Part shown: one piece after another, positions 27,547 through 48,717 of the stretch
Layout of the letters: each line of letters opens with the position of its first letter
Numbering within the stretch: the stretch's first letter is position 1
Assembly (NCBI GenBank): GCA_023131895.1
Contig: JAGLYZ010000002.1
Span: 176,474-240,473 of the forward strand
Direction: 5' to 3'
Origin: Candidatus Parcubacteria bacterium
Lineage (GTDB): Bacteria > Patescibacteriota > Minisyncoccia > Minisyncoccales > JAGMDC01
DNA: 64,000 nt
Notes under the pieces: generated by a model
Seen by the model: the letters and a program-made list of their open reading frames with translations, nothing else
The model's database searches: none
Told to the model about the DNA's origin: nothing
Translations under genes and position numbers: made by a program

Positions 27547-27638
27547 AATCGCTTCGCTTTCATTTTAACATTTAAACATATTAACAAAAAATAAATTTAA
27601 AAATGTTAAAATGTTAGTATGTTAATATGCTAAAATGA
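27547..27638. repeat. Family-1 palindromic intergenic element
   Basis: cattttaacatttaaacatattaac ... atgttaaaatgttagtatgttaatatgctaaaatg. Confidence 0.8.
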
Positions 27639-27854: not shown

Positions 27855-27903
27855 AATGCTTGTGTATTGTATCAGAATATAAGCAGAAAAGTCAAGAAAA
27901 TTC

Positions 27904-28815: not shown

Positions 28816-29701
28816 ATAATATTTTTTCTAAATTTTTAATGAGACCTTTGTTGCCAACATAAGTTGGAACTCTTTGATTAATGCTTTCTGGCTGAATATC
28901 TAATATTGACCCTGCACCATTAGTTGAAGAGCCACCTGCTTGCTTTATAATAAACGACATTGGATTGCTTTCAGCTAATAATCTTAATTTTCCATTTGGT
29001 TTGGTACTAAGCGCTGGATAAGCAAAAATCCCGCCATAATGAAGAATTTGATTAAAATCACCAACAAACGCGCCGCCATATCTTAATTTATATCCCTCTG
29101 CTTCTAATCCTTTAATATATTTTCTAAACCTAGGAAGCCAATCTTTGCGCAAACCGCCGATTCCATATAACTTACCTGGCTCTGGAAGTTTTATATTTTT
29201 TTTCTTAAGTATAAATCCTTTTCTGGTATGTAAAAATTCATTAACTCCATTTCTTGTTGCATAAACTAAAGTCATCACAGGACCGTATAAAATATACAGC
29301 GCACCCATCTGGTATTTTCCTTTAACTGGCAGGTCTTTTTTATATATGCCAAAAATTGTACCGACCAAATTATTGCTTTCAATGTTTGAAGAACCGTCTA
29401 ATGGATCCAGGGTAATACTAAATGTCCCTTTGTTATCAAGTTTTACCACATCTTCCTGTTCTTCTGATGTCATCATCTTGATCAATCCTGATTTTTTTAA
29501 TTCATCAGTTATAAATTCATCTGCCCATTTGTCTGCAACTAATTGTGTTTCGCCAAATACATTTTTTGTATCTGCCTTGCCTCGCCTGTACGGAAGCTCT
29601 TGGCTTATCCTTTCTGCGATATCAGCTATCTTTACAATCAAATCTGCCAGCTCTTTATCGTTTTTTTTCACATATTCTTTTAATGTAAATGTTTTTTCCA
29701 T
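28799..29701 (-). CDS. fbp: Fructose-1,6-bisphosphatase class 1
   Basis: TLDPLDGSSNIESN, GTIFGIY and RYGGAFVGD motifs. Confidence 0.85.
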   Translation of the reverse strand: MEKTFTLKEYVKKNDKELADLIVKIADIAERISQELPYRRGKADTKNVFGETQLVADKWADEFITDELKKSGLIKMMTSEEQEDVVKLDNKGTFSITLDPLDGSSNIESNNLVGTIFGIYKKDLPVKGKYQMGALYILYGPVMTLVYATRNGVNEFLHTRKGFILKKKNIKLPEPGKLYGIGGLRKDWLPRFRKYIKGLEAEGYKLRYGGAFVGDFNQILHYGGIFAYPALSTKPNGKLRLLAESNPMSFIIKQAGGSSTNGAGSILDIQPESINQRVPTYVGNKGLIKNLEKILYEKNN

Positions 29702-29716
29702 ATTTATATCATTATA

Positions 29717-32095: not shown

Positions 32096-32138
32096 AAAAT
32101 TTTAAACAAACACCCGGTGTTTGTATAAATGATTTAAA

Positions 32139-32597
32139 TTAAAAAAATTGGAATATGCCTAAAGTTAATAATGTAACTAATAAACCGGCTATGAGTATTC
32201 CGATAAAGATTAAAGGCAGGGCTGTTTTAAAAGGAATTCTGAAAATAAATGCGCAGATTGAACCAGTCCAGGCGCCAGTAAAAGGAAGAGGAATAGCTAC
32301 TAAAATCACCAAAGCCAGCTCTTTCCAGTTTTTAAACTTATTACTGTGATTTTTTCTATTTCTCTCAAAAAGCCAGGCGAAAAAACGGTTAAAAGAATAA
32401 AAATGATGACTCAAATATTTTGAAATCGGTCCTAAAAACCAAAGCAGAAAAATAGCTGGAATTAAGTTGCCAATAACAGAAAAAAAATAAGCTGACCAAA
32501 CTGATAAATCATACACTTCTAATGCATAAGGGATAGATATCCGAAGTTCGCCTATCGGCGCCATTGCCAATAAAAATGTTTTTAATTCTAATATCAT
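32139..32597 (-). CDS. Small multi-TM membrane protein (COG2426-like small export protein)
   Basis: Four or five hydrophobic helices, 152 aa. By-eye family match only. Confidence 0.45.
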   Translation of the reverse strand: MILELKTFLLAMAPIGELRISIPYALEVYDLSVWSAYFFSVIGNLIPAIFLLWFLGPISKYLSHHFYSFNRFFAWLFERNRKNHSNKFKNWKELALVILVAIPLPFTGAWTGSICAFIFRIPFKTALPLIFIGILIAGLLVTLLTLGIFQFF

Positions 32598-33634
32598 TGT
32601 TTTCTTAAATACTCTGCTGCTTTTTCCGGCTCAATAGTAGAAATCTCCATTCTGGTCCCTATTTCAAATCCGGCCCAAGTTGAAGTTTTTGGCAAGATGG
32701 TCCAATGCCAGTGATAATGATCGTAATTTCTTCCATCGCAAGGAGCAGTGTGGAGATAAAAATTGTAAGCTGGATCATTTAAACCTTTATAAAGCTTGCT
32801 TAATGCTTTTTGAAATGCCTCTGCTAAATGCTGTTTTTCTTTTTCAGTAATTCTTTCAAAATAAGAAAGGTGTTTTTTAGGAGTAATAATAACTTCAAAA
32901 GCCATTTTAGAGGCAAAAGGACAAATAACTAAAAAATCATTGTTTTCAAAAACTACTCTCTTTTTATTTTTCCTTTCCCAATCGCCCATTAAACAATAAA
33001 GGCATTTTTTATGAGCTCTGAAATATTTTTTAGAATTACGGATTGCTTTCTTTAAATCAGTATCAATAAGAGGCGTAGTTATAATTTGAGAATGAGGATG
33101 AGCAATTGAAGCGCCTGATTCTATACCATGGTTATGAAAAATTGAGATATAATTGACAAACTTTTCTTTCATTAAACTTAAATATCTTTCTTGATAAATA
33201 TCTATTACTTCTTTAATCTGTTTTATTGAAAATTGAGTCATTTGTTTATTATGGTCTCGAGTAATCACTACTTCGTGAAAACCCACTGCGTTCATCTTCT
33301 CATATAAGCCCCCTTCAATATGTTTATCTATTTTTGAATTAGGAATAAAGGCAGGATATTTATTTGGTACAGAAATTGTTGTCCAATTTTTTGGAATCTT
33401 GCTCCCGGGTTTAAATTTTATTTTTTTACCATTGGAAAATAAAATTGTTGGCATCTCCTGAGTATGAATTTGGCAAAAAGGACAATCTTTTTTAGAAACC
33501 TTTTCTATTTTTCTTCTTTCTTTTTTAAAAGTTTCCGGCCTCCGCGCCCTGCCAGTCGCAATAACAACCCAATCCTTTGAAGCGAGATCAAAACGTAATT
33601 CGGAAGGAAATTTCAGTTTTTGGTTTTTAGACAT
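32594..33634 (-). CDS. galT: Galactose-1-phosphate uridylyltransferase-like (GalT, HIT superfamily)
   Basis: CPFCQ zinc motif and SIAHPHSQI active-site His-x-His-x-Q. Confidence 0.7.
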   Translation of the reverse strand: MSKNQKLKFPSELRFDLASKDWVVIATGRARRPETFKKERRKIEKVSKKDCPFCQIHTQEMPTILFSNGKKIKFKPGSKIPKNWTTISVPNKYPAFIPNSKIDKHIEGGLYEKMNAVGFHEVVITRDHNKQMTQFSIKQIKEVIDIYQERYLSLMKEKFVNYISIFHNHGIESGASIAHPHSQIITTPLIDTDLKKAIRNSKKYFRAHKKCLYCLMGDWERKNKKRVVFENNDFLVICPFASKMAFEVIITPKKHLSYFERITEKEKQHLAEAFQKALSKLYKGLNDPAYNFYLHTAPCDGRNYDHYHWHWTILPKTSTWAGFEIGTRMEISTIEPEKAAEYLRKQ

Positions 33635-34358
33635 ATTTTTTACTAATTAAATTCCATCTAATTTGAAATACTTCAATTAACATTTTTACCATTGACTTGA
33701 ATCCTACTGTACTTGCTTGATCGTTTATCCAAACAACTGGAATTTCTTTTATTTTATAACCAAGTTTTTTAACTAAAACTAAAACTTCCACATCAAAAGC
33801 AAAACGGTTGATTTTACATTTCGGAAAAATATCTTCCACTGCTTTTTTAGTAAAACCCTTAAATCCGCACTGGGTATCCCATATTCCAAAAAGTCCGGAA
33901 ATAATCTGGACAATTAAATTAAAGATATTACCAAGCATTATTCTCCACCAGGTCTGAGGGACAGTAATAACTGCTCCCTTAATATCCCGCGAACCAATTA
34001 CAACTTCATAACCATTTTGAAATTCTGGCCACATTTTTTCTATTTGGTCAATTGAGGTAGAATTATCAGCGTCAGTAAAAACTCTGTATTTCCCCTTTGC
34101 TTCTAATAATCCCTGTCTAACAACATAACCTTTGCCGTGGTTTGTTTTATTGTTAATTATTCGTAAATTCTTAATTTCAGGGATTACTTTTCTTACAACC
34201 TCTGCAGTTCTATCTGGAGAACCGTCATTAACTACAATAATTTCATAAGCATATGTCTGTTTTGACAAATACTTGTCAATTTCTTTTAATGTCTTAACAA
34301 TCCTTTTTTCCTCTTTATAAGCAGGGACTATAACTGAAAGGTAAATTTCATTGAGCAT
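33627..34358 (-). CDS. Family 2 glycosyltransferase (dolichyl/polyprenyl-phosphate hexosyltransferase-like)
   Basis: LSVIVPAYKEEKRI, VVNDGSPDRT and TDADNS (DxD). Confidence 0.8.
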   Translation of the reverse strand: MLNEIYLSVIVPAYKEEKRIVKTLKEIDKYLSKQTYAYEIIVVNDGSPDRTAEVVRKVIPEIKNLRIINNKTNHGKGYVVRQGLLEAKGKYRVFTDADNSTSIDQIEKMWPEFQNGYEVVIGSRDIKGAVITVPQTWWRIMLGNIFNLIVQIISGLFGIWDTQCGFKGFTKKAVEDIFPKCKINRFAFDVEVLVLVKKLGYKIKEIPVVWINDQASTVGFKSMVKMLIEVFQIRWNLISKKYV

Positions 34359-34394
34359 TAAATTATTTTAGCACAAAATTGAAAATAAAAACAG

Positions 34395-37306: not shown

Positions 37307-37354
37307 GTTCGCTTACGCTCAAGTTAAAAATTAAAAGTGAAAAAGTAAAAAGTT
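37307..37354. repeat. Family-2 half element with GC-rich start-proximal box
   Basis: gttcgcttacgctcaagttaaaaattaaaagtgaaaaagtaaaaagtt, directly upstream of the secY ATG. Confidence 0.7.
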
Positions 37355-37442
37355 GCGAAGAAAACAGATTTTTCAAATTCTGGGGCGTGGGCGCGGCGAA
37401 GCCCGAAGGAGGGCTGAATTTGAAAAATTTTGTTTTCATAGC
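37355..37442. repeat. Family-3 complete inverted pair around a GC-rich core
   Basis: gcgaagaaaacagatttttcaaattc + tggggcgtgggcgcggcgaagcccgaaggagggct + gaatttgaaaaattttgttttcatagc. Confidence 0.75.
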
Positions 37443-37457
37443 AAATGATTTAGTTTC

Positions 37458-38377: not shown

Positions 38378-38734
38378 TTAAAAATTTAGTCCTCCTTTTC
38401 TTGCTCCCTCGGCTAACGCTTTGACTCTTCCATGATATTTATATCCGCCCCTGTCAAAAACCACTTTTTTAATTTTCTTCTCAACGGCCTTTTTAGCAAT
38501 CAGTTCCCCAATTTGATTAGCAATAAAGATTTTAGTGGTTTCTTTATTTTTTGCTTTTTTAATTTCAAACTCACTTGAACTTAAAATTGTCTTACCTTTT
38601 TCATCGTCAATTAGCTGGGCATAAATATATTTATTTGAACGAAAAATACAAAGCCGCGGAATTTTAGCTGTCCCAGATATTTTAACTCTTACTTTTTTAT
38701 GCCGTCTATATCTTTTTTCTTGTTTTTTTAACAT
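38378..38734 (-). CDS. rplR: 50S ribosomal protein L18
   Basis: [34 protein letters not shown]...[23 protein letters not shown]. Confidence 0.9.
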
Positions 38735-38735
38735 A

Positions 38736-39317
38736 TTATTCTGCGGCTACTGCCTTTTTACCTACCTTTTTCCTGACTATTTCATTAATATATCTAATTC
38801 CTTTTCCCTTATACGGCTCCGGCGGTTTTACTTTTCTTATTTTAGCAGCGACCATGCCAACTAATTCTTTATCAATACCTGAAATAGTAATAATATTTTT
38901 TTCTACTGATAATTTTATGCCATCTAAAGATTTAATTTTCACTGGATGGCTAAAACCGATGTTTAATATTAAATCATTTCCATCTAAAGAGGCCTTGTAT
39001 CCCAAACCTTCTATTTGAAGCTTTTTCTCATAACCATCTTTAACGCCTTGTATCATATTGGCTAAAAAAGCTCTAGTCAACCCCCAAAAAGCATTAATCT
39101 CTTTTGCTTGCTTTCCTGATTCTTTTCTTGAAGTCGTTTTCTGGTTTTCTTTTTTAGGAAAAACGTAAACTTCTTGAGTTTTAATTTCAATATCAATTTC
39201 AGGCCGAACCTCTTTAGAAAGTTCGCCTTTAGGACCCTTAACTGTAACTTTCTGACCATCAATTTTTAGTTCGACACCATCTGGTATTTCAATTGGTTTT
39301 TTGCCTATACGACTCAT
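38736..39317 (-). CDS. rplF: 50S ribosomal protein L6
   Basis: [33 protein letters not shown]... Confidence 0.9.
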
Positions 39318-39409
39318 AAATCATTTTAACATTTTAGCATTTAAGCATTTTAACATAATAAATTAAAATTTTGTTTAAATGTTAGCATGTTTGTATGTTT
39401 AGATGAACT
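39318..39409. repeat. Family-1 palindromic intergenic element
   Basis: Right-hand 59 nt or so (cattttaacataataaattaaaattttgtttaaatgttagcatgtttgtatgtttagatg) identical to the 39800-39894 copy. Confidence 0.85.
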
Positions 39410-39799
39410 TTACCATATTTCACATATTACCTCTCCTCCTAATCTATTTTTTCTTGCTTCTCCATCAGCCATCAATCCTTTTGATGTGGAAATAATAGCT
39501 GTTCCAAATCCTCCTTTTATCTTCCTTATTTTCTGATAAGGAATATAAATTCTCTGTCCTGGCTTTGAAATCCTTTTTAACTCAGTGATAGCCGAAATAT
39601 CTTTATTATATTTAAGAGAAAGTTCTATTATTTTTTCTGTCTTTCTTTTCTTTTTTTCCGTTTTTTTAATGTATCCTGTCTTTTCTAAAATCTTTGCAAT
39701 TTCATATTTGAAAGCTGAAAAAGGAATATCAACCGTAGGCTTTAATACGGCTTGAGCATTTTTTATTCTATTAAACATATCAGTTACTGGATCAGTCAT
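39410..39799 (-). CDS. rpsH: 30S ribosomal protein S8
   Basis: MTDPVTDMFNRIKNAQAV...GGEVICEIW. Confidence 0.9.
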   Translation of the reverse strand: MTDPVTDMFNRIKNAQAVLKPTVDIPFSAFKYEIAKILEKTGYIKKTEKKKRKTEKIIELSLKYNKDISAITELKRISKPGQRIYIPYQKIRKIKGGFGTAIISTSKGLMADGEARKNRLGGEVICEIW

Positions 39800-39894
39800 A
39801 AAAATTCATTTTAACATTTTAACATTCAAACATTTTAACATAATAAATTAAAATTTTGTTTAAATGTTAGCATGTTTGTATGTTTAGATGCAAA
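39800..39894. repeat. Family-1 palindromic intergenic element
   Basis: aaaaattcattttaacattttaacattcaaacattttaacat ... atgttagcatgtttgtatgtttagatg. Confidence 0.85.
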
Positions 39895-40080
39895 CTACCA
39901 GCTTGATTTCTTTACTCCTGGGATTTGCCCTTTATTCGCCATTTCCCTGAAACAAATTCGGCATAGTCCAAATTCTCTTAAATAGCCTCTCTTTCTGCCG
40001 CATCTAAAACATCTCCTTACAATACGAGTTGAAAATTTGGGTTTTTTATTTGATTTTGCTATTTGTGATTTAGTAGCCAT
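39895..40080 (-). CDS. rpsN: 30S ribosomal protein S14, zinc-binding type Z (61 aa)
   Basis: [24 protein letters not shown]. Confidence 0.9.
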
Positions 40081-40081
40081 C

Positions 40082-40645
40082 TTATTTCTTTATTGGGAAA
40101 CCTAATAATCTTAATAATTCTAATCCTTGCTCTCTTTTTTTTGCTGTGGTTACAATAGTAATCTCAAAGCTAAAAAGGAATCTTGTTTTCTCCGGGGATA
40201 TTTCTGGAAAAGATATATGTTCTTTTATAGCAATAGTTAAATTTCCTTTTTGATCAATTGATTTAAGCTCAATACCTTGAAAATCACGTGAACGAGGAAG
40301 CGCGATATGAATTAATCTATCTAAAAAATCATGCATTTTTTGTTTTCTTAGAGTCACTTTGGCTCCAATCTCCATACCCTCACGGATTTTAAATGTAGAA
40401 ATAGATTTCTTTGCTTTAGTTAAAACTGGACGTTGTCCGCATATTAAAGCTAAATCATGGACAATTGCTGCCTTAATTTTCTTTTTTTCATCAGATGTTT
40501 TATCTGTTATCATTCTGCCAAAACCAATATTAACCACTACCTTTTCAACATTAGGAACAGCCATACTGTTTTTGTATCCGAACTTTTTTTTCATAGCCGG
40601 CACAACCTCTTTAATATATTTGTCTTTTAGTTTGACAACACTCAT
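40082..40645 (-). CDS. rplE: 50S ribosomal protein L5
   Basis: [12 protein letters not shown]...[11 protein letters not shown]. Confidence 0.9.
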
Positions 40646-40729
40646 TTTAACATTTTAACATTTAAGCATTTTAACATTTCTGATTTTATTTTTTGTTAAT
40701 ATGTTAGTATGCTTAAATGTTAGTATGAT
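40646..40729. repeat. Family-1 palindromic intergenic element
   Basis: tttaacattttaacatttaagcattttaacat ... gttaatatgttagtatgcttaaatgttagtatg. Confidence 0.8.
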
Positions 40730-41065
40730 TTAAATTTCTCCTCCGCACTTTTTACAAATTCTTATTTTAATCTTCTTCGATTTGCTGGCAGATCCTGCTT
40801 TTGGCTTTACTATTTTATATTCTATCCTTGCCGCTTTTTTACATTTAGTGCAAATCAGCTTCACATTTGAGACAGAGATTGAACCAGGCATTTCTACTAT
40901 CTGTCCTTTTTCACCAGTTTTTTTAGGCCTAACACTTTTTTTTCTTATGTTTATGCCTTCAACTAAAATTCTTTGCCCTTTAGGCAAAGCTTCAAGAACC
41001 TTGCCTTTTCTGGTTCGGTCCTTGCCTGAAATTATTAATACTGTATCGCCTTTTTTTATCTTCAT
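40730..41065 (-). CDS. rplX: 50S ribosomal protein L24 with CxxC...CxxC C-terminal segment
   Basis: MKIKKGDTVLIISGKDRTRKGKVLE (KOW); CTKCKK...CKKCGG. Confidence 0.9.
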   Translation of the reverse strand: MKIKKGDTVLIISGKDRTRKGKVLEALPKGQRILVEGINIRKKSVRPKKTGEKGQIVEMPGSISVSNVKLICTKCKKAARIEYKIVKPKAGSASKSKKIKIRICKKCGGEI

Positions 41066-41068
41066 GTT

Positions 41069-41440
41069 TTATACAAGATCCTTTGCCATTCCAGCTATTT
41101 TATCAAATCCTTTTTCTTTTAACTCTCTGGCAACAGGGCCTAAAATTCTTCCTCCTTTTGGTTCTTTAGTTTTACCCTCAAGAATTACTCCTGCATTATC
41201 ATCAAAACGAATATAAGAACCATCTGAACGCCTATATTCTTTTTTCTGCCTGATGATTACTACTCTAACTTTATCATGTTTTTTAACAATTTTCCTTGGC
41301 TCTGCTTTTTTCACTGCTGCTACTACTATATCTCCAATTTGAGCATATCTTCTCCTGGTGCCGCCGAGCACCTTAAAACACTGAGCAAGTTTGGCTCCGG
41401 TATTATCTGTTATTTTTAACATTGTTTGCGGCTGAATCAT
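41069..41440 (-). CDS. rplN: 50S ribosomal protein L14
   Basis: [17 protein letters not shown]... Confidence 0.9.
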
Positions 41441-41667
41441 ATCTTTTTAATTACTACCCATCGTTTGTCTTTTGATATTGGCCTTGTTTCTTCAATTATA
41501 ACCCTGTCGCCGACATTAAATTCTCCATTTTCATTATGGGCTTTATATTTTTTATGCATTTTATATCTTCTCTTATATTTAGGATGGACTTTTATCCTTT
41601 CTACCTCTACCACTATTGTCTTTAACATTTTATTAGAAACAACTATTCCTTTTAATTTTTTCTTCAT
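41437..41667 (-). CDS. rpsQ: 30S ribosomal protein S17
   Basis: [29 protein letters not shown]. Confidence 0.9.
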
Positions 41668-41668
41668 A

Positions 41669-41851
41669 CTAATTTTGCTTTAAAATTGTTAATATTTGAG
41701 CAATTTCTTTTTTAATTTTTCTAATCTCTCTAACATTTTTCACTTTACCAGAGACTAAATCAAAACGCAACTGTCGTAATTTCTCACGATTTTTTATTAA
41801 AATACCATGAAGCTCTGATTTTGATTTACGTTGTAATTCTGTTGCCTGCAT
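41669..41851 (-). CDS. rpmC: 50S ribosomal protein L29
   Basis: 60 aa, [18 protein letters not shown]; sits between rplP and rpsQ. Confidence 0.85.
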
Positions 41852-41861
41852 AAATTATAGA

Positions 41862-42266
41862 TTATCTTTTAATAAATTTTGTCTTTATCGGCAGCTTATC
41901 TGCCGCTCTGCTAAAAGCTTCTTTGGCCATTTCCTCTTTTATTCCTTCTAACTCAAAAATGATTCTACCTGGTTTTATTGGAAAAGCATAATATTCAACA
42001 GTTCCCTTTCCTCCGCCCATAGGAACTTCTGTTCCTTTTTTAGTTATAGGTTTATCTGGAAAAATTCTTATCCAAAGCTTCCCACCTTTTTTTAAATATC
42101 TAATAATAGCTCTGCGGCTTGCCTCAATTTGGCGGGCTGTAATCCATTTTTTCTCCAATGCTTTTAAACCATAACTGCCAAAAGACAGATCAGCTGCCCG
42201 CCTCTCTATCCCTCTTGAACGGCCTTTATGCCATTTTCTATGTTTAATTTTTTTTGGCATCAACAT
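41862..42266 (-). CDS. rplP: 50S ribosomal protein L16
   Basis: [16 protein letters not shown]...[13 protein letters not shown]. Confidence 0.9.
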
Positions 42267-42280
42267 GTTCCTTTATAAAG

Positions 42281-42961
42281 TTAAAATTTTTCGCCTTTGT
42301 ATAACCATACCTTTATTCCTATCACACCATAAGTACAATAAGCTCTTGCTGTTCCATAATCAATATCTGCTCTTAATGTTTGTCTTGGAAGACGGCCATT
42401 TTTTATCCATTCTCTACGCGCGATTTGCGCTCCATTCAAACGACCGGAAACCTCTACTCTTGCCCCTTTTATTTCTTTATTGACCATAATCTTGCTCAAT
42501 GCTTGTTTTAATACCCTGCGATAAGGCATTCTCCTTTCTATCTGCTGGGCAATCCATTGAGCAATAATATTCGAATATGTCCAAGGATTTCTAATTTCTC
42601 TAATTTCAATTCTGATTTCTTCTTTTACTTTGTTTAATGCTGTTAATTTTTGATTAATAAGTGGCTTATAGCTCTTAATGATTTTTTTCTCTAACTCTTT
42701 TTTAAGTTCTTCTGCTCCTTTGCCTCCGCGGCCTATAATAAAACCTGGCTTTGAAGTATTAATAATAATATTGACTTTACCGGGAAATCTCTCAATTTCA
42801 ATATTTTGAACCCCAGAATCCTTTAGCCTTTCTTCTAAAAAGTCTCTTATCACAAAATCTTCCTTTAAATATTTAGGAATACTCTTTTTAAACTGCCATC
42901 GAGAATCCCAATCACTTGTTTCTCTCAATCTATATGCTTTTGGATGCACTCTATGACTCAT
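42281..42961 (-). CDS. rpsC: 30S ribosomal protein S3
   Basis: MSHRVHPKAYRLRETSDWDSRW...GRLNGAQIARRE. Confidence 0.9.
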   Translation of the reverse strand: MSHRVHPKAYRLRETSDWDSRWQFKKSIPKYLKEDFVIRDFLEERLKDSGVQNIEIERFPGKVNIIINTSKPGFIIGRGGKGAEELKKELEKKIIKSYKPLINQKLTALNKVKEEIRIEIREIRNPWTYSNIIAQWIAQQIERRMPYRRVLKQALSKIMVNKEIKGARVEVSGRLNGAQIARREWIKNGRLPRQTLRADIDYGTARAYCTYGVIGIKVWLYKGEKF

Positions 42962-43068
42962 GTTCGCTATCGCTCAAGTTAAAAATTAAAAGTGAAAAAT
43001 TAAAAATTATTTATTAAAACTTTTAACTTCTAACTTTGACTTTTAACTTCTAACTTTAAACTTTTAAT
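42962..43068. repeat. Family-2 palindromic intergenic element with GC-rich start-proximal box
   Basis: gttcgctatcgctcaagttaaaaattaaaagtgaaaaattaaaaatt ... aacttttaacttctaactttgacttttaacttctaactttaaactttt. About 80 nt nearly identical to 43909-44018. Confidence 0.85.
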
Positions 43069-43578
43069 TTAGAAGGCTTTTCGCCTAAATACTCTTTTCA
43101 TGCCTTGTGTTATTTTTGGCACATATTTCTCTTTCGTATCCTTTGGCTTTGGTTGTTCTGGTTTGACAGTTGTTTTTTCTTCCTTCTCTATTTTCTCATC
43201 TACAACTTTCTTTTCTGTTTTCTTAACCTTTTTAACTTTTTTCTTTTTAATCTCGCTTAATTCTAAAGAAATATGAGAACTCTTTTTCTGAATTTCAGCA
43301 GCTCTTCCTCTTGACTGAGCATGCCATCTTTTTAGCTTCGGTCCTTCATCAACAAAAATCTTTGAGATATAAAGATTATCTTCTTCAAGCTGAAGATTAT
43401 CTTTAGCATTAGCTATACTTGACTTCAAGAGTTTTAATAACGGCTCAGACGATCTATTCGGCGTGAAATTTAAAATCCTTTGAGCTTGCTCAACTGATTT
43501 TCCCCTAATCAAATCAACCATTAAACGAACCTTTCGCGGCGCAATATGAAGATATCTTAGTTTGGCTGTAATGTTCAT
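43069..43578 (-). CDS. rplV: 50S ribosomal protein L22 with a 55-aa or so Lys-rich C-terminal extension
   Basis: AKLRYLHIAPRKVRLMVDLIRGKSV... Confidence 0.9.
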   Translation of the reverse strand: MNITAKLRYLHIAPRKVRLMVDLIRGKSVEQAQRILNFTPNRSSEPLLKLLKSSIANAKDNLQLEEDNLYISKIFVDEGPKLKRWHAQSRGRAAEIQKKSSHISLELSEIKKKKVKKVKKTEKKVVDEKIEKEEKTTVKPEQPKPKDTKEKYVPKITQGMKRVFRRKAF

Positions 43579-43590
43579 ATAAACAAAATA

Positions 43591-43908
43591 TTAAGATGAT
43601 TTATCTTTTTCGGTTTCTTGCTGTTTTGTTTTTATTTCCTGCTCTTTCTGTATTTTTCCCCCATGCCTTACAAATTTTTTTGTTGGAGCAAATTCACCTA
43701 ACTTATGCCCCACCATATCCTCTGCAACTAATACTGGAATATGCTCCTTGCCGTTATGAACGCCAAATGTAAAACCAACCATTTCTGGAGATATAGTGCA
43801 AGCTCTCGCCCAAGTCTTAATAATTACTCTGTCGCCTTTCTTGAACTTGCTTATTTTTTTTAATAATTTTTCGTCCACATATGGACCTTTTTTCAGAGAT
43901 CTAGCCAT
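43591..43908 (-). CDS. rpsS: 30S ribosomal protein S19
   Basis: [19 protein letters not shown]...HNGKEHIPV. Confidence 0.9.
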
Positions 43909-44018
43909 GTTCCTTCGCTTCGCTCAGTCAAGTTAAAAGTGAAAAATTAAAAATTATTTATTAAAACTTTTAACTTAAAACTTTGACTTTTAACTTCTAA
44001 CTTTAAACTTTTAATTTT
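43909..44018. repeat. Family-2 palindromic intergenic element with GC-rich start-proximal box
   Basis: gttccttcgcttcgctcagtcaagttaaaagtgaaaaattaaaaatt ... aacttttaacttaaaactttgacttttaacttctaactttaaactttt. Confidence 0.85.
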
Positions 44019-44852
44019 TTAGGTTTTTTTCTTCTTCTTTCGTCTCTTGATAATAAGCTTGTCTGTCCATTTTTTCTTTCTTGTTTTTACCCCTAATGCA
44101 GGTTTCCCCCAAGGCGTTTTCGGATGCTTCATTCCAATTCCGGTTCTTCCCTCTCCGCCTCCATGAGGATGGTCAACAGGATTCATTGCTGATCCTCTAA
44201 CATGCGGCCTTCTGTCCTTATAACGGCTCCTGCCTGCTTTTCCTATTTTAACATATTTATATTCAGGATTTGAAACCATTCCTATTGAAGCAAAACATTC
44301 CATTGATACTTTTCTAATTTCAGAAGAAGGAAGAACAAGATGAGTATATCCTCCTTCTTGAGCCAAAACTCTCGCTGTGGTGCCTGCTCCTTTTACAATA
44401 AGCCCTCCTTTGCCTGGCTCAAACTCAATATTATAAACTAAGGTTCCTATTGGAATGTTTTTTAATTTCATTCTGTTTCCCGGCTTAAACTCTCCTTTCT
44501 CTGAAATAACAATCGTATCATCTACTTTTAATCCCTGAGGAGCGAGAATATATCTTTTCTCCTTATCTTCATATTCTAAAAGAGCGATAAAAGCAGAGCG
44601 ATTAGGATCATATTCTAAAGCAACAACTTTTGCTGGAATATTAATTTTTTCCTGGCTGAAATCAATGTGGCGATACATTCTTTTTGCGCCGCCGCCTCTA
44701 TGCCTTATAGTAATTCTCCCTTGTAAATTCCTTCCTCCTCTTTTTTTTAATATTGAAATTAAACCTTTTTCAGGTTTTTTCTTGTTTAATTGAGGAGATT
44801 CAATTTTGGTCATGCCTCTCCTTCCCGGTGTCGTTGGTTTATACTTCTTCAT
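44019..44852 (-). CDS. rplB: 50S ribosomal protein L2
   Basis: [11 protein letters not shown]...[18 protein letters not shown]. Confidence 0.9.
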
Positions 44853-44857
44853 ATATT

Positions 44858-45328
44858 TTATCTTGGCAATAATTCTATCTTTTGGCCTTTTTTTATTTTT
44901 ACAATTGCTTTTTTATATCCTTTTTTCCAACCAAGAATTCTACCTCTCATCTTTTTTTTCCTAGGGATACTAACAGTCCTAACATCTAAAACATCAACTC
45001 CATAAATACCTTCTACTGCTTTTTTAATCTCTTTTTTGTTTGATTTGGGGAAAACTCTAAAAATATATTTATTTTCTTTAGTTAAATCAGTCGCTTTTTC
45101 AGAAATATGAGGTTGCTCTAAAACCCTCCAAGCCTGCCCGACTCCGTCTGAACGAGGTCTTGGCGGACGGGCTAAATCTACTTTCTTTTTCGGTTTTTCT
45201 TCCTTTTTTTCTTTTTCAACAACTTTAGGTTCAACTTCTTTTTTCTCTTTAACTTCCTTTTTTTCAGCAATCTTAGGTTTTTCTTCAATTTTTTTCTTCT
45301 CTTTTTTAAAAAAATCAAATAATTTCAT
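44858..45328 (-). CDS. rplW: 50S ribosomal protein L23 with a 60-aa or so Lys/Glu-rich N-terminal extension
   Basis: The core [32 protein letters not shown] starts near residue 75. Confidence 0.85.
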
Positions 45329-45329
45329 A

Positions 45330-45974
45330 TTAAGATTTTACAAATGTTTCTTTTATTACTTTTATTGACTCTTTCGGCATAATCAAATATTTATAATTTA
45401 AAATATCAAGGCAATTTAATTCTTTTGCTTGAATCGTCGCTAATTTAGGAATATTTCTTGCTGATAAAATTACATTTTTATCCATCTTTGGCAAAGCGAT
45501 TAAAACGCTCTTTATTTTTTTCTTATCTGGCTTGACTAAATTATCTCTTATGACTTTCATCTCTCTTGTTTTCGCCTTATCAATTTTTAATTCATCTAAA
45601 ATAATTAATCCTTTTACTTTTACTTTTTGGCTCAAAACCATAAAAAGAGCTTTTCTTTTCATTTTCTTGGGAATTATTTTTTTAAAATCTCTCTCTTTAA
45701 CAGGACCAAAAGTAATGCCTCCTCCTCTCCATAAAGGCGAACGGATAGAGCCTACTCTTGCCCTGCCAGTGCCTTTCTGCCTCCACGGCTTTCTGCCGCC
45801 TCCTTTAACCTCGCTTCTGTCTTTAGCGTGCGCGCTATTCTGCCGCCTGTTTGCCATTTGCGAAACAACCACCTGATGAACCAAATCAGAATTAAAAGCA
45901 ACCTCAAAAATCTCTTTTGGCAATTCAACTTCTTCTTTCTTCTCGCCTTTTTGATTGTAAAGATTAATTTTCAT
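45330..45974 (-). CDS. rplD: 50S ribosomal protein L4
   Basis: KGGGRKPWRQKGTGRARVGSIRSPLWRGGG. Confidence 0.9.
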   Translation of the reverse strand: MKINLYNQKGEKKEEVELPKEIFEVAFNSDLVHQVVVSQMANRRQNSAHAKDRSEVKGGGRKPWRQKGTGRARVGSIRSPLWRGGGITFGPVKERDFKKIIPKKMKRKALFMVLSQKVKVKGLIILDELKIDKAKTREMKVIRDNLVKPDKKKIKSVLIALPKMDKNVILSARNIPKLATIQAKELNCLDILNYKYLIMPKESIKVIKETFVKS

Positions 45975-45991
45975 AAATAACTGTTCTCGAA

Positions 45992-46606
45992 CTATACTCG
46001 GATTTCCAGCAAGGTGCCGCGATGACCTGGTATTGCGCCTTTCACTGCTAATAGATTATTATCTTTATCAATTTTGACTATTTTTAAATTCTTAACTGTA
46101 ACTCTTTCAGCTCCCATTCTGCCAGGCATTTTTCTTCCCTTAATAACCCTTTCCGGGAAAGAACTTCCTACTGAACCTAATGTTCTTTGTTCATGCTTCA
46201 CTCCATGAGTGGCATTTCTTCCATGGAAACCCCATCTTTTCACTGCTCCTTGAAAACCTTTTCCCTTGGAAATACCGGAAATTCTTACTTTATCTCCTTG
46301 TTCAAAAATTGAAACATCTATCTTATCACCTATTTTTAATTCCTGTTTGTTATCTAAAGATTTAGCGAAAGCGGGCTTAAACTCTCTGATATATTTAAAC
46401 TCTTTTCCTTTCATAGTTTTCTTAATTTTTTTTTGCTTGGTAATTTTTTCAAAACCAATCTGAATCGCTTCATATTTATCCTTTTCTTGCATTTTTATCT
46501 GTGTAATATAACAAGGTCCAGCCTCAATTAAAGTTATTGGAACCTGCTTGCCTTTTTCGTCAAAAAACTGACTCATCTCCAATTTTTTTCCTAAAATAAA
46601 TTTCAT
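45992..46606 (-). CDS. rplC: 50S ribosomal protein L3
   Basis: GKGFQGAVKRWGFHGRNATHG. Confidence 0.9.
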   Translation of the reverse strand: MKFILGKKLEMSQFFDEKGKQVPITLIEAGPCYITQIKMQEKDKYEAIQIGFEKITKQKKIKKTMKGKEFKYIREFKPAFAKSLDNKQELKIGDKIDVSIFEQGDKVRISGISKGKGFQGAVKRWGFHGRNATHGVKHEQRTLGSVGSSFPERVIKGRKMPGRMGAERVTVKNLKIVKIDKDNNLLAVKGAIPGHRGTLLEIRV

Positions 46607-46620
46607 ATTTTACTTAGATT

Positions 46621-46649
46621 TAATTAAAAACCGGGTATAGCCCGGTTTT
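46621..46649 (-). terminator. Terminator-like hairpin between rpsJ and rplC
   Basis: Minus strand AAAACCGGG-CTATA-CCCGGTTTT followed by TAATTAA. Its function (attenuator or terminator) is unknown. Confidence 0.45.
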
Positions 46650-46677
46650 CTGCCTTGGCCGATATTTTTATTTTATA

Positions 46678-47016
46678 TTACATCTTGATTTCAATTTCTA
46701 CACCAGCTGGAAGAGTCAAACTAGTTAAAGCATCAACAATTTTGGGATTTGGATTAAGAATATCAATCAAACGTTTATGAACCCTCATTTCAAACTGCTC
46801 TCTGCTATCTTTATGAATAAAAGAAGATCTATTCACTGTATATTTATGAATTTCAGTAGGTAAAGGAATGGGACCATAAACTTCAACACCATAGCGCTCG
46901 ACTGTTTCAACAATCTGCCTAGCGCTATTATCAATAACTTTATGATCATAAGCCCGCAACTTAATACGAAGTTTGGACTTAATCTCTTCTTCAACTGCTT
47001 TCTTTTTTGTAGCCAC
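46678..47016 (-). CDS. rpsJ: 30S ribosomal protein S10 (GTG start)
   Basis: [22 protein letters not shown]... Confidence 0.9.
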
Positions 47017-47050
47017 GTTTATTTTAAACTTTTAAGTTCCTGCTTTTGAT

Positions 47051-48250
47051 TTACTTAATAATCTTTGTTACTACTCCAGCACCAACAGTTTTACCTCCCT
47101 CCCTAATAGCAAATCTTTGCTTTTCTTCAAGAGCAACTGGAGCAATTAATTTAATCTTTAAGGTAACCGTATCTCCTGGCATAACCATTTCTGTCCCTTC
47201 TGGCAGAACAACATCACCAGTAACATCAGTGGTTCGAATATAGAATTGAGGCTTATAGCCAGTGAAGAAAGGAGAATGCCTTCCGCCTTCTTCTTTGCTT
47301 AAAATATAAACCTCGCCTTCAAATTCAGTATGAGGTGTTATACTGCCTGGCTTAGCCAAAACCTGCCCCCTTTCAACTTCTTCCTTTTTTAAACCCCTAA
47401 GCAAAATACCAACATTGTCACCTGCCCTTCCTTCATCCAGCATTTTATTAAACATTTCAACGCTTACTACGACTGTTTTCTGAGTAGGTTTAAAACCAAT
47501 AAGTTCTACCTCCTCATTTGGATGCACTACACCTCTTTCAATCCTGCCAGTAGCAACAGTTCCTCTTCCAGCAATAGAAAAAACATCCTCAATAGCCATT
47601 AAAACTGGCTTATCAATATCCCGGACTGGTTCAGGGAAATAATCATCTACTGCTTTGACTAAATCTAAGATGGGTTTTGCTGCCTCTTCATCAACTGACT
47701 TTACCTCTAATGATTTAATAGCTGAACCGCGAATCACTGGAACTTCATCACCAGGAAACTTATATTTCTTTAAAAGCTCCCTTACTTCTGATTCCACTAA
47801 ATCAATTATTTCAGGGTCGTCTACAGTGTCGCATTTATTTAAAAACACTACTATATTTGATAATCCTACCTGACGGGCAAGTAAAATATGCTCTCTGGTT
47901 TGAGGCATAACGCCGTCAGCCGCAGAAACAACCAAAATAGCGCCATCCATCTGCGCGGCTCCGGTAACCATATTCTTAATATAGTCAGCGTGGCCAGGAC
48001 AATCAATATGGGCATAATGCCTCTTCTCTGTTTCATACTCCAAATGAGAAATATTAATAGTTAAGCCGCGCGCTTTTTCCTCTGGAGCAGAATCAATCTG
48101 ATCTACTGCTTTTTCTGAGGCCTTGAATCCCTTTAATCTTAAAATGTGCAGTATAGCTGCAGTAAGAGTGGTCTTGCCATGGTCTACATGACCAATGGTG
48201 CCAATATTAAGATGAGTTTTTCCTCTTTCAAATTTTTCTTTCTCAGCCAT
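47051..48250 (-). CDS. tuf: Elongation factor Tu
   Basis: [18 protein letters not shown] and NKCD GTPase motifs; 399 aa. Confidence 0.95.
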
Positions 48251-48335
48251 AAATCATTTTAACATCTAAGCATTTTAACATTTTAACATTAATTTTTGTT
48301 AATATGTTAACGTGTTAGTATGTTGTTATAAGATT
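48251..48335. repeat. Family-1 palindromic intergenic element
   Basis: aaatcattttaacatctaagcattttaacattttaacat ... gttaatatgttaacgtgttagtatgttg; abuts the tuf ATG. Confidence 0.8.
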
Positions 48336-48393
48336 ATATTATATATAATATTAAAAATTAAAAAAAAGTCAACCCCCTTTATTGAAAAAAGAG

Positions 48394-48678
48394 TTAAACC
48401 GGCAAATCTTCAATCTTTAATGATTCTTCTGATTGCGGAGTTTTCTCAACTGCCTCTGTATATTCGTTATCGCTCTCTGAATTAAATTCTTGAGCTTCTG
48501 GGATTTTTTCTATAGAACTCGGATTTGATTGCCGGGAAGAAATTCTTTCAGAATTCTCCTCTATTATTTTTTTATAATCTTGAAAACTCATCACCATTAG
48601 CACTGGCTCTCCATTTTCCACAATAATAAACTTTCCTCCATCAATTTTTATTAAATTTTTGATTTCATCTAAATCCAT
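48394..48678 (-). CDS. Small acidic hypothetical protein; N-terminus reminiscent of Phd/YefM antitoxins
   Basis: GKFIIVENGEPVLMVMSFQDYKKI, then a low-complexity acidic tail. Inserted between fusA and tuf. No partner toxin seen. Confidence 0.35.
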   Translation of the reverse strand: MDLDEIKNLIKIDGGKFIIVENGEPVLMVMSFQDYKKIIEENSERISSRQSNPSSIEKIPEAQEFNSESDNEYTEAVEKTPQSEESLKIEDLPV

Positions 48679-48717
48679 AATGGTTTTATATTAGCAAACT
48701 TCTCCCAAAAAATCAAC

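Follow-up and report, generated by a model that had tools for sequence, protein, structure and literature searches.

A dispersed family of palindromes built from 8-nt units occupies gene junctions in Parcubacteria

REPs are single hairpins of 20 to 40 nt whose GTAG-type head is conserved and which are accompanied by a RAYT gene; they act as mRNA stabilizers or segment boundaries. The hairpins of Correia elements are cut by RNase III; outward promoters are possible in them, and TA is duplicated. RNase III also excises rRNA intervening sequences (IVSs), which are typically positioned at a hairpin tip. Rickettsia palindromic elements (RPEs) insert in frame inside open reading frames (ORFs) and are translated. 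STRR arrays are direct repeats without an obligatory inverted second arm, and we know of none that fills the gap between a stop codon and a start codon. The genomes of CPR bacteria are among the most compact known. Analysis of a 64,000-nt stretch of DNA (here called the window) from a Minisyncoccales (Parcubacteria/CPR) bacterium revealed a palindromic repeat, designated Family-1, that resembles these systems in part. Family-1 is a dispersed repeat family of Parcubacteria that has not been described before: no description was found in the searchable literature, and none is present in Rfam. In an Rfam scan of the window, the gathering score was reached by 16S rRNA and tRNA only, and the Family-1 elements gave only sub-threshold matches to a miRNA hairpin model (21 to 26 bits versus a threshold of 80).

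An earlier note on this DNA had listed nine copies of the repeat, and all nine were recovered. A covariance model was built from the copies and used to scan the whole 64-kb window with filters off at E<=1; it returned exactly these nine loci and no others. The copies are given below with their strand, their genomic context, the score of the covariance model (CM) and the z-score of the fold against dinucleotide shuffles, followed by the promoter-like site next to E8.

E1, 1959 to 2042, minus strand: between the mreB stop (2043) and the start of a holB-like gene (1958); CM match 1951 to 2042 with model polarity on the minus (sense) strand, 73.6 bits; z -3.6
E2, 13469 to 13569, minus strand: between rpsD and rpoA; CM 85.4 bits, minus; z -3.7
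E3, 14666 to 14755, minus strand: between rpsM and rpsK (GTG start); CM 90 bits, minus; z -4.7
E4, 27547 to 27638, minus strand: between a ferredoxin gene and the L25/Ctc gene; CM 72.5 bits, minus; z -2.9
E5, 39318 to 39409, plus strand: between rpsH and rplF; CM 86.5 bits, plus; z of the sense RNA -0.7
E6, 39800 to 39894, plus strand: between rpsN and rpsH; CM 89.5 bits, plus; z -3.2
E7, 40646 to 40729, plus strand: between rplX and rplE; CM 85.4 bits, plus; z -5.9
E8, 48251 to 48335, plus strand: tuf 5' leader, directly 3' of a sigma-70-type promoter; CM 80.3 bits, plus; z -4.5
E9, 58569 to 58640, minus strand: partial copy between an MBL-fold gene and an adk-like gene; CM 48.8 bits (the lowest of the nine), minus; z -0.5
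Promoter-like site TTGACT-16-TATTAT, 48345 to 48372, minus strand: predicted to place the 5' end of the tuf transcript at E8 or just ahead of it

In each Family-1 copy, roughly four NNTAACAT units follow one another every 8 nt, and an AT loop separates them from roughly four ATGTTANN units. The full layout is TCAT, three to five NNTAACAT units, an AT-rich loop of approximately 14 to 23 nt, three to five ATGTTANN units and ATGA; TCAT and ATGA thus bound an inverted repeat that takes up the whole element. Copies are 72 to 101 nt long and have a G+C content of 16 to 22%. The inverted arms described earlier as complementary are present, but their complementarity is imperfect, with blocks of about 5 to 14 bp split by internal loops of 1 to 3 nt. 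The 16-mer TTTAACATTTTAACAT, searched with up to three mismatches, occurs 46 times versus 7.3 +/- 3.1 times in shuffles (0 of 100 shuffles reach 46), and nearly all of these occurrences fall within the nine elements. The strand polarity of the nine copies is clear, with a difference of 25 to 35 bits between strands in the covariance model, and the copies form two orientation classes relative to the genes. E5 has its model polarity on the plus strand and is therefore inverted relative to its gene; E3 and E7 are inverted copies of each other. Among 57 oriented metagenome copies, the two classes comprise 16 and 24 copies, and 17 are ambiguous. Family-2 in the window and the families of loci L009 to L027 are other periodic palindromes.

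All nine copies are extragenic (nine per 64 kb) and are positioned between codirectional genes or in a leader. The flanking genes reported for three consecutive spacers (rpsH/rplF, rpsN/rpsH and rplX/rplE) were correct. The placement of the family inside ribosomal operons was too narrow, as window copies also precede the holB-like, tuf, L25 and adk-like genes and copies elsewhere precede many others. Nor does every copy fill its whole spacer: 58 nt more are present upstream of E8, 13 additional nt (AAGCGAAGCGATT) stand ahead of the ATG at E4, and E9 is partial and overlaps an ORF. The MBL-fold ORF upstream runs into E9 for its final 12 codons, so that its tail KIILTSFKSIFC is read from the element and E9 supplies its stop codon.

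Comparison of orthologous spacers revealed that the copies are present in some close relatives and absent from others and are not uniformly kept. In L001, whose L5 protein is 94% identical, three of the four comparable copies are missing and the tuf copy is kept. The L001 spacers at these junctions are unrelated to the elements and measure 12 nt at the E5 site, 29 to 32 nt at the E6 site and 104 nt at the E7 site. E5 and E6 are likewise missing from the same junctions in L002 and L003, where the genes at the E7 junction overlap, and insertion polymorphism between close relatives is thus present for E5, E6 and E7. The L002 operon is compact; its spacers are mostly 11 nt or less, with two longer ones of 65 nt before rplC and 125 nt before tuf. 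Spacers of 70 to 180 nt are found at differing junctions in the window, L001 and L003. In the distant lineage L023, an element again sits at the rpsH-rplF junction. The same spacers in relatives hold palindromes of unrelated units, and in L015 four different units occupy four neighboring spacers.

The family extends over many metagenomes. At least 120 metagenome stretches among the matches listed fit the Family-1 core pattern; of the matches inspected, most proved to be true copies and the smaller part to be due to chance. The genes downstream of these copies are unrelated housekeeping genes (clpP, recA, ymdB, pth, HU, holB, tsf and ribosomal protein genes). In L160, L176, L183, L092 and L174, copies fill the spacers between tRNA genes. 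One copy is found within the 16S rRNA gene of L132, where it replaces a hairpin loop and prolongs the stem (-36.1 kcal/mol): this gene reads CCCAGAC[89 nt]GTCTGGG at the site where the window reads CCUCG-GACAA-CGGGG, and the insert, in that copy only, folds as a single 103-nt hairpin at the helix tip. Insertions are abundant in CPR rRNA genes, and those described are mostly long and intron-like (PMC9297842); Family-1 likely explains some of the short ones. A phage origin was rejected, as blastn against a phage collection gave no match and the two pattern matches in IMG/VR were chance matches without periodic arms.

Differences were also found between strains that are about 99% identical; this organism or close relatives of it occur in the ENA samples ZHAN22-2 SAMN18200499-501. 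The E6 alleles of L202 and L203 are shortened by 16 nt and 24 nt, corresponding to two and three units of the start-proximal arm, and a single unit remains in one arm of the L203 allele. In the L202 stretch over E5 to E7, four of five differences lie inside the elements. One strain-level G-to-A change is common to E5 and E6 (concerted substitution); E2 is identical in the strain variants L205 and L206. The identity between E5 and E6, earlier put at about 59 nt, is exact over 60 nt (39346 to 39405 and 39831 to 39890). The strain alleles and the change shared by E5 and E6 support the recent spread or gene conversion that had been suggested from this identity.

Taken together, these data point, with a probability of roughly 0.55, to Family-1 as a non-autonomous REP/MITE-like dispersed palindromic repeat of a Parcubacteria clade. 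Among the three roles proposed in the earlier note, that of a MITE-like selfish element is the best supported for origin and dynamics, because copies show presence/absence, both orientations, many contexts, unit polymorphism and concerted evolution; a target-site duplication and an autonomous partner were not found. Direct repeats are missing from the flanks of all nine copies, and no duplicated bases were seen at three junctions that are filled in the window and empty in L001. Neither the 64-kb window nor approximately 0.5 Mb of element-bearing loci revealed a transposase or RAYT-like gene. Pfam scans covered most window ORFs that are about 100 amino acids or longer, together with 49 downstream proteins and the genes sandwiched between copies, and identified housekeeping functions only; no Y1 transposase matched among the scanned window ORFs, which come from an incomplete genome, or among the 49 downstream proteins. 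The genes between paired copies are rplN, rplX, rpsO, ymdB and a gene with an HTH domain (HTH_25). Since no transposase and no target duplication were seen, it is equally likely that the copies spread by transposition and that they arose at stop/start junctions through template switching or recombination.

Copies would enter, in either orientation, the gaps of a few nucleotides between neighboring genes that are transcribed together. Later loss, resizing by apparent slippage in 8-nt steps and homogenization by gene conversion with neighboring copies are documented. Such insertions may be tolerated through fold-back pairing of the ends, which would leave the flanks side by side, whether these are stop and start codons, a pair of tRNAs or both strands of a helix in rRNA. 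Owing to the 8-nt period, each of the three reading frames would also meet a TAA on the entry side and an ATG on the exit side. RNase III could plausibly accept the long, bulged A-U hairpin as a substrate, and the operon transcript may be cut into separate messages; RNase III is kept in at least 90% of CPR genomes (PMC12641178). Two observations bear on whether the repeat is a pure passenger. The tuf copy present in seven lineages and the reoccupation of the rpsH-rplF junction in L023 fit a selected function better. The conservation of the unit over many genomes, while others use unrelated units, calls for a constraint on sequence and not only on folding.

Analysis of the tuf leader showed that TTGACT-16-TATTAT is the joint-top promoter match (10 of 12) within positions 38500 to 49000. 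It is located in the 58 nt (48336 to 48393) upstream of E8, and because these promoter-bearing nucleotides precede the element, E8 constitutes the tuf 5' leader. The order promoter, element, ATG upstream of tuf is kept in seven lineages, down to 74% identity of the EF-Tu N terminus, and a conserved TTGACn with a TATAAT-like box after it is shared by L001, L002, L149, L115, L165 and L129. The tuf leaders of more distant relatives carry other hairpins. The tuf copy is transcribed, as judged from its position, and the intercistronic copies are presumably transcribed with their host genes.

A tentative explanation, drawn from sequence motifs, is that Family-1 could be a portable promoter cassette for leaderless mRNAs. 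The unit junction ATGTTANN-ATG reads T-G-T-T-A-N-N-A-T, an extended -10 (TGnTAnnnT), and the 8-nt period puts the A of the ATG two units on at the expected transcription start. Each arm would then be a phased row of outward-facing promoters, the last of which would start a leaderless message at the AUG of the neighboring gene. Such a cassette would restore expression when an insertion breaks translational coupling in a host without an anti-Shine-Dalgarno sequence. The extended -10 motif ends 5 to 6 nt before the start codon in seven of the nine copies: the last TGTTAnnAT lies 6 nt from the start codon in E1 (TGTTAATAT, before ATG), E2 (TGTTAAAAT, before ATG), E3 (TGTTAGTAT, before GTG), E7 and E9, 5 nt from it in E5 and E8, 8 nt in E6 and 15 nt in E4. 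For rplF and tuf, the start codon is the native one, as the N termini are the same in relatives without the element. The terminal motif and its spacing are spared by the E6 strain deletions, and TGTTAAAAT-N5-ATG is kept in five of the seven tuf leaders, though the 5 nt vary. In 264 element-free genes taken from the window and related contigs, TAnnnT peaks exactly 6 nt before the ATG (28 versus a background of 11.2; Poisson p = 1.6e-5). The full TGnTAnnnT occurs 8 times at the 6-nt offset, with no more than 3 occurrences at every other offset, and several TAnnnT cases have good -35 boxes 16 to 17 nt away. This putative -10 box before element-free genes suggests that leaderless messages are common in these organisms. 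The 16S tail of the window (GGAUCAUUACAUUU) lacks CCUCC, and hence the anti-Shine-Dalgarno sequence has been lost, as is already known for part of the Parcubacteria (PMC9297842).

The number of motifs per arm is slightly higher in the start-proximal arm than in the stop-proximal arm (2.49 versus 2.09; p = 0.04), but this asymmetry is weak. Moreover, tuf is already served by a strong upstream promoter, which makes the element a leader. About one-third of the units (ATGTTTAA and ATGCTTAA) give TTAAAT and are without the critical A at -11, and some copies, e.g., in L023, consist solely of these. The geometry of 5 to 6 nt was found in only 26 of 51 oriented metagenome copies, in which the start codons are ambiguous since the arm itself offers ATGs. 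The inter-tRNA and 16S copies need no such promoter, and their spacing is unfit; the palindromes of Family-2 and of L009 to L027 have no -10-like junction. A classical promoter inside the element was rejected: a two-hexamer scan of the sense strand gave nothing above chance, and the only strong site is the one upstream of E8. Of the terminator-promoter unit considered earlier, the promoter half gains support from the extended -10-like junctions, and the terminator half is unsupported, as a G+C-rich stem or T tract is missing. It is less likely than not that Family-1 is a mobile, orientation-independent plug-in promoter whose 8-nt period is set by promoter geometry and which, in Parcubacteria that are without an anti-Shine-Dalgarno sequence, would make ribosomal operons into series of leaderless single-gene messages.

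A less probable alternative to the dispersed-repeat reading is that the elements are kept because an intercistronic or 5'-terminal stem-loop works in the mRNA. Candidate tasks would be an RNase III site, a barrier to RNase J/PNPase that sets segment stability, or translational coupling, in which the start codon would be held near the terminating ribosome or unmasked. The genes rnc, rnj and pnp are kept by CPR genomes (PMC12641178). Folding against dinucleotide shuffles revealed that seven of the nine window copies fold better (z -2.9 to -5.9), the exceptions being E5 and E9. In most copies the base of the stem lies 0 to 7 nt from the stop codon and 0 to 5 nt from the start codon, and the tuf copy, conserved in seven lineages, begins at the predicted 5' end of the message. 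The insertion in 16S rRNA is at a site that tolerates only a hairpin. The palindromes at the corresponding spacers of relatives are unrelated in sequence, so that what is shared is the fold.

Arm-to-arm covariation was not confirmed. In an arm-swap analysis, native pairs folded at -17.9 kcal/mol versus -18.5 kcal/mol for swapped pairs; native arms had the advantage in 8 of 25 cases, and the outcome was negative both before and after the polarity was fixed. Pair counts showed a slight excess over shuffles (91.6% versus 90.0% paired cells; 70 versus 48.9 double changes), which relatedness could explain. A/G changes are uncompensated, giving G:U or A.C, with G:C in only 4 cells, and the pairing derives almost wholly from the unit consensus. 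Selection on the sense-strand RNA, sought as a G:U asymmetry, was likewise rejected. The sense RNA of the window copies is not more stable than the antisense RNA (summed, -152.8 versus -170.3), the 57 oriented copies gave -20.1 for sense versus -21.5 for antisense (p = 0.2), and in other palindrome families the sense strand was better in 14 of 35 spacers of relatives. Elements also occur in both orientations, the same junctions lack hairpins in close relatives, and truncated-arm alleles exist. The hairpin is not strictly maintained, because E5 and the E6 allele of L203 fold poorly. The role of an mRNA processing or stability hairpin proposed in the earlier note is retained as far as transcription (at least in the tuf leader) and the folding of most copies are concerned, and it gains nothing from covariation or strand asymmetry.

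It is rather improbable that the 8-bp units form inverted arrays bound by a sequence-specific protein, with the palindrome as a by-product. The binder would be an end-binding protein of a transposase/recombinase type, a nucleoid protein or a regulator. What is conserved is indeed the unit motif and not the arm-to-arm complementarity, the same Family-1 unit is kept in many genomes, and binding would not depend on orientation. However, the scanned neighbors of the copies yielded no candidate protein, and the unit number varies freely, even among strains. Many unrelated units are found in the same architecture elsewhere, as in the four neighboring spacers of L015, and binding would therefore require many coevolving proteins.

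An intercistronic terminator-promoter unit, or a substitute Shine-Dalgarno array pairing with the altered 16S tail, is very improbable: the elements do sit between cistrons, and the window tail (AUCAUUACAUUU) resembles the left-arm unit, so that AAAUGU and AAUGAU of the right arm could pair with it, but this explanation is largely refuted by the canonical GGAUCACCUCCUUU 16S tail of L132 and by a terminator scan that detected no intrinsic terminator in the elements. Because L132 carries both a family member and the canonical CCUCC tail, the family is not tied to an altered tail; GGAGG motifs on some element-bearing contigs and the copies in tRNA and rRNA contexts also speak against it.

In this clade, the most conserved bacterial operon is interrupted by palindromes of tandem units, 70 to 180 nt in length, at junctions that are genome specific, and Family-1 is one such family that can be traced over many samples. 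As unit number and presence vary among strains, Family-1 is a marker of very recent genome change. It also offers a handle on gene expression in Parcubacteria without a 16S anti-Shine-Dalgarno sequence. Should the elements supply promoters for leaderless messages, the cost of inserting this selfish repeat would be repaid by the repeat itself.

As a REP/MITE-like repeat, Family-1 is to be compared with several known systems. Like the REP/BIME sequences of enterobacteria and pseudomonads, its copies are dispersed, extragenic, imperfect palindromes within transcription units, in either orientation, with a species- or clade-specific sequence that is homogenized within the genome. Unlike REPs, Family-1 elements are 72 to 101 nt long, have 8-nt tandem units in both arms and span the distance from stop to start; a 20- to 40-nt palindrome with a head tetranucleotide is not present in them, and a RAYT-like gene was not found. 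Bacterial MITEs (Correia/NEMIS of Neisseria, ERIC, RUP and BOX) are also noncoding inverted-repeat elements of about 100 bp, with insertion polymorphism among close relatives and cotranscription with neighboring genes. Family-1 differs from them in having no visible target duplication or matching insertion sequence and in consisting of inverted short tandem units throughout, instead of terminal repeats around a core, with a unit number that shifts by slippage. TIGR-Tas arrays were rejected as a match, as their 36-nt period and guide structure are unlike the 8-nt inverted array. The L132 copy resembles rRNA intervening sequences in being located at a 16S hairpin tip and extending the stem, whereas Family-1 is mainly intercistronic and inter-tRNA. 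In common with RPEs, Family-1 palindromes invade compact genomes at sites of least harm, including structural RNA and protein genes; unlike RPEs, they end ORFs, as in E9, because TAA is present in all frames. With the heptamers of cyanobacterial STRR sequences, Family-1 shares intergenic arrays of 7- to 8-nt tandem units whose sequences are lineage specific.

Inspection of the window sequence revealed a copy of Family-1, a periodic AT-rich palindromic repeat, at each of the nine positions proposed in the earlier note, and this repeat is a real feature that does not arise by chance. With three mismatches allowed, the 16-mer TTTAACATTTTAACAT matched the window 46 times (7.3 ± 3.1 times in dinucleotide shuffles), and nearly all of these matches lay inside the nine copies. 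A covariance model built on the copies and run unfiltered on both window strands with a cutoff of E ≤ 1 recovered exactly E1 to E9 and no further locus. The copies are given below with the strand and identity of the downstream gene.

1959-2042, minus, E1, holB-like gene
13469-13569, minus, E2, rpoA
14666-14755, minus, E3, rpsK
27547-27638, minus, E4, L25 gene
39318-39409, minus, E5, rplF
39800-39894, minus, E6, rpsH
40646-40729, minus, E7, rplE
48251-48335, minus, E8, tuf
58569-58640, minus, E9, adk-like gene

Read in the direction of the genes, a copy begins 0 to 4 nt after the upstream stop codon and consists of (T)CAT, three to five NNTAACAT units repeating at exactly 8 nt, a 14- to 23-nt AT-rich loop, three to five ATGTTANN units and, often, a terminal ATGATTT(T); the next gene's start codon follows. 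Since 8 equals 2 modulo 3, three successive units place TAA in all frames on the entry side and ATG in all frames on the exit side. The arms are unlike: one is mostly TTTAACAT, and in reverse complement the other consists largely of ACTAACAT or ATTAACAT; the innermost part is almost invariant. One strand scored 25 to 35 bits over the other in the covariance model, and this polarity revealed both orientations relative to the genes, with E1, E2, E3, E4, and E9 lying one way and E5 to E8 the opposite way. The proposal that every copy fills its whole spacer fails for E8, which has 58 nt upstream of it. E4 is separated from the start codon by 13 extra nt, and E9 is a partial copy from which the last 12 codons and the stop codon of an upstream MBL-fold ORF are read. 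The stretch shared by E5 and E6 is indeed identical; its length is 60 nt (39346-39405 and 39831-39890), not about 59.

Besides other housekeeping genes, the window carries most of the str/S10/spc/alpha ribosomal protein genes. In the GTDB species set, a Minisyncoccales MAG (L001; L5 94% identical) is nearest, followed by other Parcubacteria. Three ENA metagenome samples contain the host species at 100% identity and strains of it at about 99%. The spc and alpha operon parts are split: map and infA lie about 19 kb apart (15625-34358) with other genes interposed, including alaS, 16S rRNA, tRNA-Thr, tsf, rpsB, rpmE, a short release-factor-like ORF, the L25 gene, and ppdK. The two parts fall on different scaffolds in one ENA assembly of the host species. 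An unlisted 38-codon rpmJ (L36) gene (15150-15266, minus) lies between infA and rpsM and is preceded by a 70-nt palindrome, CAACCACTAATAGAATCACGAATAA...TTATTCGTGAGAATTAGTGGTT (15291-15360), which belongs to neither Family-1 nor the second periodic palindrome family of the window, Family-2. Toxin-antitoxin-type genes stand amid the translation genes between fusA and tuf: a HepT-like RNase paired with an MNT nucleotidyltransferase, and a weak Phd/YefM-like ORF (54590-55475 and 48394-48678).

Comparison of orthologous spacers showed that Family-1 copies come and go among relatives. In L001, the corresponding spacers hold unrelated sequence of 12 nt (rpsH-rplF), 29 to 32 nt depending on the start codon chosen (rpsN-rpsH), and 104 nt (rplX-rplE). 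The operon is compact in a second relative, L002 (L5 79% identical), where most spacers measure 11 nt or less and the longer ones are 65 nt before rplC and a 125-nt tuf leader. Spacers of 70 to 180 nt occur in the window, L001, and a third relative (L003), at different junctions and with partly different repeat families. A covariance-model scan of 44 CPR genome loci (680 kb) revealed just four Family-1 sites: the tuf leaders of L001 and L002, and, in two distant lineages, the rpsH-rplF spacer of L023 and a site before secY in L073. A metagenome scan with the conserved core yielded at least 120 stretches from many samples, most of them full copies. Among the matches listed, the downstream genes included clpP, recA, ymdB, pilB, pth, rplN, holB, HU, pheS, tsf, and rpsJ, and no transposase; 69 of 93 copies lay between codirectional ORFs, and most of the remaining 24 lay beside tRNA genes or at contig ends. 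Several copies span the space from one tRNA gene to the next, their TCAT...ATGA ends lying a few nucleotides from either tRNA.

In locus L132, a copy replaces a 16S rRNA hairpin loop (CCCAGAC[89 nt]GTCTGGG; window counterpart, CCUCG-GACAA-CGGGG) at the counterpart of E. coli helix 40, and the insert folds into one 103-nt stem. The same 16S gene (7194-8945) contains a second insertion of 195 nt (7617-7810), another AT-rich periodic palindrome, in the 5' domain at about model position 457. Repeats of this kind may often underlie short insertions in CPR rRNA.

Copies also change between strains. The start-proximal arm of E6 lacks 16 nt, exactly two units, in strain variant L202 and 24 nt, exactly three units, in L203. 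Both strains carry an identical G-to-A change at the corresponding position of the 60-nt stretch in E5 and E6, which supports the recent spread or gene conversion suggested earlier. Four of the five differences in the E5-E7 stretch of L202 fall inside elements. In two other strain contigs E2 is unchanged, and one of them also spans an unchanged E3. The unit-sized deletions and the common change indicate resizing by slippage or unequal exchange and homogenization of neighbors by gene conversion.

A REP/MITE-like dispersed palindromic repeat is the best-supported reading of Family-1. It colonizes transcribed gaps (intercistronic, leader, inter-tRNA, rRNA helix tip) and evolves through unit slippage and gene conversion. 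The evidence establishes its family status, insertion polymorphism, occurrence in both orientations, range of contexts, strain dynamics, and capacity to fold. Its tolerance would be explained by folding out of the transcript and by carrying its own stop codons. Intercistronic copies are probably cotranscribed with their neighbors, the hairpin presumably folds in vivo, and RNase III might cleave it; rnc is kept in CPR genomes (PMC12641178). Upstream of E8 lies a promoter match, TTGACT-16-TATTAT, the joint best (10/12) in 10.5 kb, and the order promoter, Family-1 element, ATG recurs before the tuf gene of seven lineages, whose EF-Tu N termini are as little as 74% identical. This position and conservation suggest that the tuf copy is transcribed as a 5' leader and is old, which argues for some benefit or at least strong tolerance.

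One possible function, less likely than not and compatible with a selected hairpin, is that the arms act as outward leaderless promoters. The extended -10 sigma-70 consensus is TGnTAnnnT, and transcription usually starts about 6 nt after the hexamer. The unit junction, T-G-T-T-A-N-N-A-T, fits it, with conserved positions on TG, T-12, A-11, A-8, and T-7 and variable ones on -10 and -9, and the 8-nt period puts the A of the ATG two units on at 6 nt after the hexamer. The distance from the end of the last motif to the start codon is 6 nt (E1, E2, E3, E7, and E9), 5 nt (E5 and E8), 8 nt (E6), or 15 nt (E4). Both rplF and tuf use native start codons, because the N termini are identical in relatives without the element. 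An independent check on 264 element-free genes from the window, L001 to L003, and element-bearing contigs revealed a TAnnnT peak exactly 6 nt before the ATG (28 versus a background of 11.2; Poisson p = 1.6e-5). The full TGnTAnnnT occurred 8 times at this offset, no other offset had more than 3 occurrences, and several cases had good -35 boxes at 16 to 17 nt (e.g., TTGACA-16-TATAAT-6-ATG in L082). These peaks point to leaderless messages from promoters abutting the start codon, which the organisms appear to make, and suggest that leaderless mRNAs are widespread in them; the Family-1 arms mirror this geometry. The caveats are serious, however. The tuf gene is already served by its own upstream promoter, tRNA and rRNA copies have no need of a leaderless promoter, and the motif is missing from other periodic palindrome families. 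About one-third of the units read TTAAAT, without A-11, and some copies consist of such units alone. Among the matches listed, the 5- to 6-nt spacing was found in only 26 of 51 oriented metagenome copies, whose start codons are ambiguous, and the motif was only slightly in excess in the start-proximal arm (2.49 versus 2.09 in the stop-proximal arm; p = 0.04).

Among window genes that carry no element, 33627-34358, 16929-18701, 6897-7619, 8799-10241, and 58602-59480 have a -10-like hexamer ending exactly 6 nt before the ATG, in many cases preceded by TG, as do genes at many other loci; an example is TGCTAAAAT-AATTTA-ATG (34359-34373). The lone 16S rRNA gene of the window (18861-20357) lies between alaS and tRNA-Thr, unlinked from any 23S gene. 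Its 3' tail (18861-18880, minus) reads GGAUCAUUACAUUU, compared with GGAUCACCUCCUUA in E. coli; it lacks CCUCC, and the anti-Shine-Dalgarno sequence is therefore absent. This loss has been reported for about half of Parcubacteria (PMC9297842). GGAGG precedes few window genes.

Selection for an RNA hairpin, which could coexist with promoter activity, is likewise less likely than not. Seven of the nine sense RNAs folded better than shuffled controls (z = -2.9 to -5.9), and E5 and E9 folded no better. The sense strand had no stability advantage in any set tested: window sums were -152.8 (sense) versus -170.3 (antisense), the sense strand was more stable in 14 of 35 members of other families in relatives, and 57 oriented copies among the matches listed gave -20.1 versus -21.5 (p = 0.2). 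Swapping arms between copies with polarity fixed did not weaken the fold (native, -17.9 kcal/mol; chimera, -18.5 kcal/mol; native better in 8 of 25). In the model-fitted alignment of 147 hits, 91.6% of cells were paired, versus 90.0% with shuffled partners; the A/G position was uncompensated (G:U or A.C, with G:C in 4 cells), and double changes occurred to some extent at a single T/A position only. The arm-swap and pair-count results indicate that pairing is almost entirely a product of the shared unit consensus. The arms keep their inverted arrangement, with no independent sign of selection preserving base pairs.

Family-1 exemplifies a general tendency in the clade. In many Parcubacteria the same operon junctions are filled by palindromes of 70 to 150 nt with 7- to 9-nt tandem units of unrelated sequence, as between rplX, rplE, rpsN, rpsH, and rplF in L009, L011, L012, L015, L016, L024, and L027; in L015, each of four adjacent spacers has a different unit, and L024 has one family across three. 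Family-2 is built of AAAAGTTA/TAACTTTT units and carries the conserved tail ACTTGAGCGNNAGCGAAC ahead of the ATG. Its copies all have the same orientation and end in ACTTGAGCG-NN-AGCGAAC (or GACTGAGCGAAGCGAAGGAAC) directly before the start codons of mreB, rpsC, rpsS, secY, an M50 protease gene, and a gene of unknown function. A third hairpin family (stem GAAAACAAAATTTTTCAAATTC...GAATTTGAAAAATCTGTTTTC, G+C-rich center) lies before secY in both the window and L001; only L001 has it at further junctions.

3093-3220, Family-2
21569-21704, Family-2
42962-43068, Family-2
43909-44018, Family-2
37307-37457, partial Family-2 copy; also third hairpin family
53434-53522, partial Family-2 copy
L001 10993-11166, 11596-11766, and 13066-13164, third hairpin family

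Genes in L001, L011, and L016 are preceded by tails resembling that of Family-2, and L176 has a Family-2-like element between tRNAs (1116-1205).

Rfam contained no family matching Family-1, and literature searches revealed no description of such repeats in CPR bacteria. The repeat is of interest to CPR genomics, mobile-element biology, and translation initiation without Shine-Dalgarno pairing. Its closest known counterparts are REP/BIME, MITEs such as Correia elements, rRNA intervening sequences, Rickettsia RPEs, and cyanobacterial STRR repeats. Family-1 departs from REPs in size, and no RAYT gene was found among the window ORFs scanned or 49 downstream proteins; it departs from MITEs in lacking a target duplication, and no partner element was found in the window or in about 0.5 Mb of element-bearing loci. 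For these reasons it is not filed under any of these families. Family-1 works like the known families, and its build from periodic units is distinctive.
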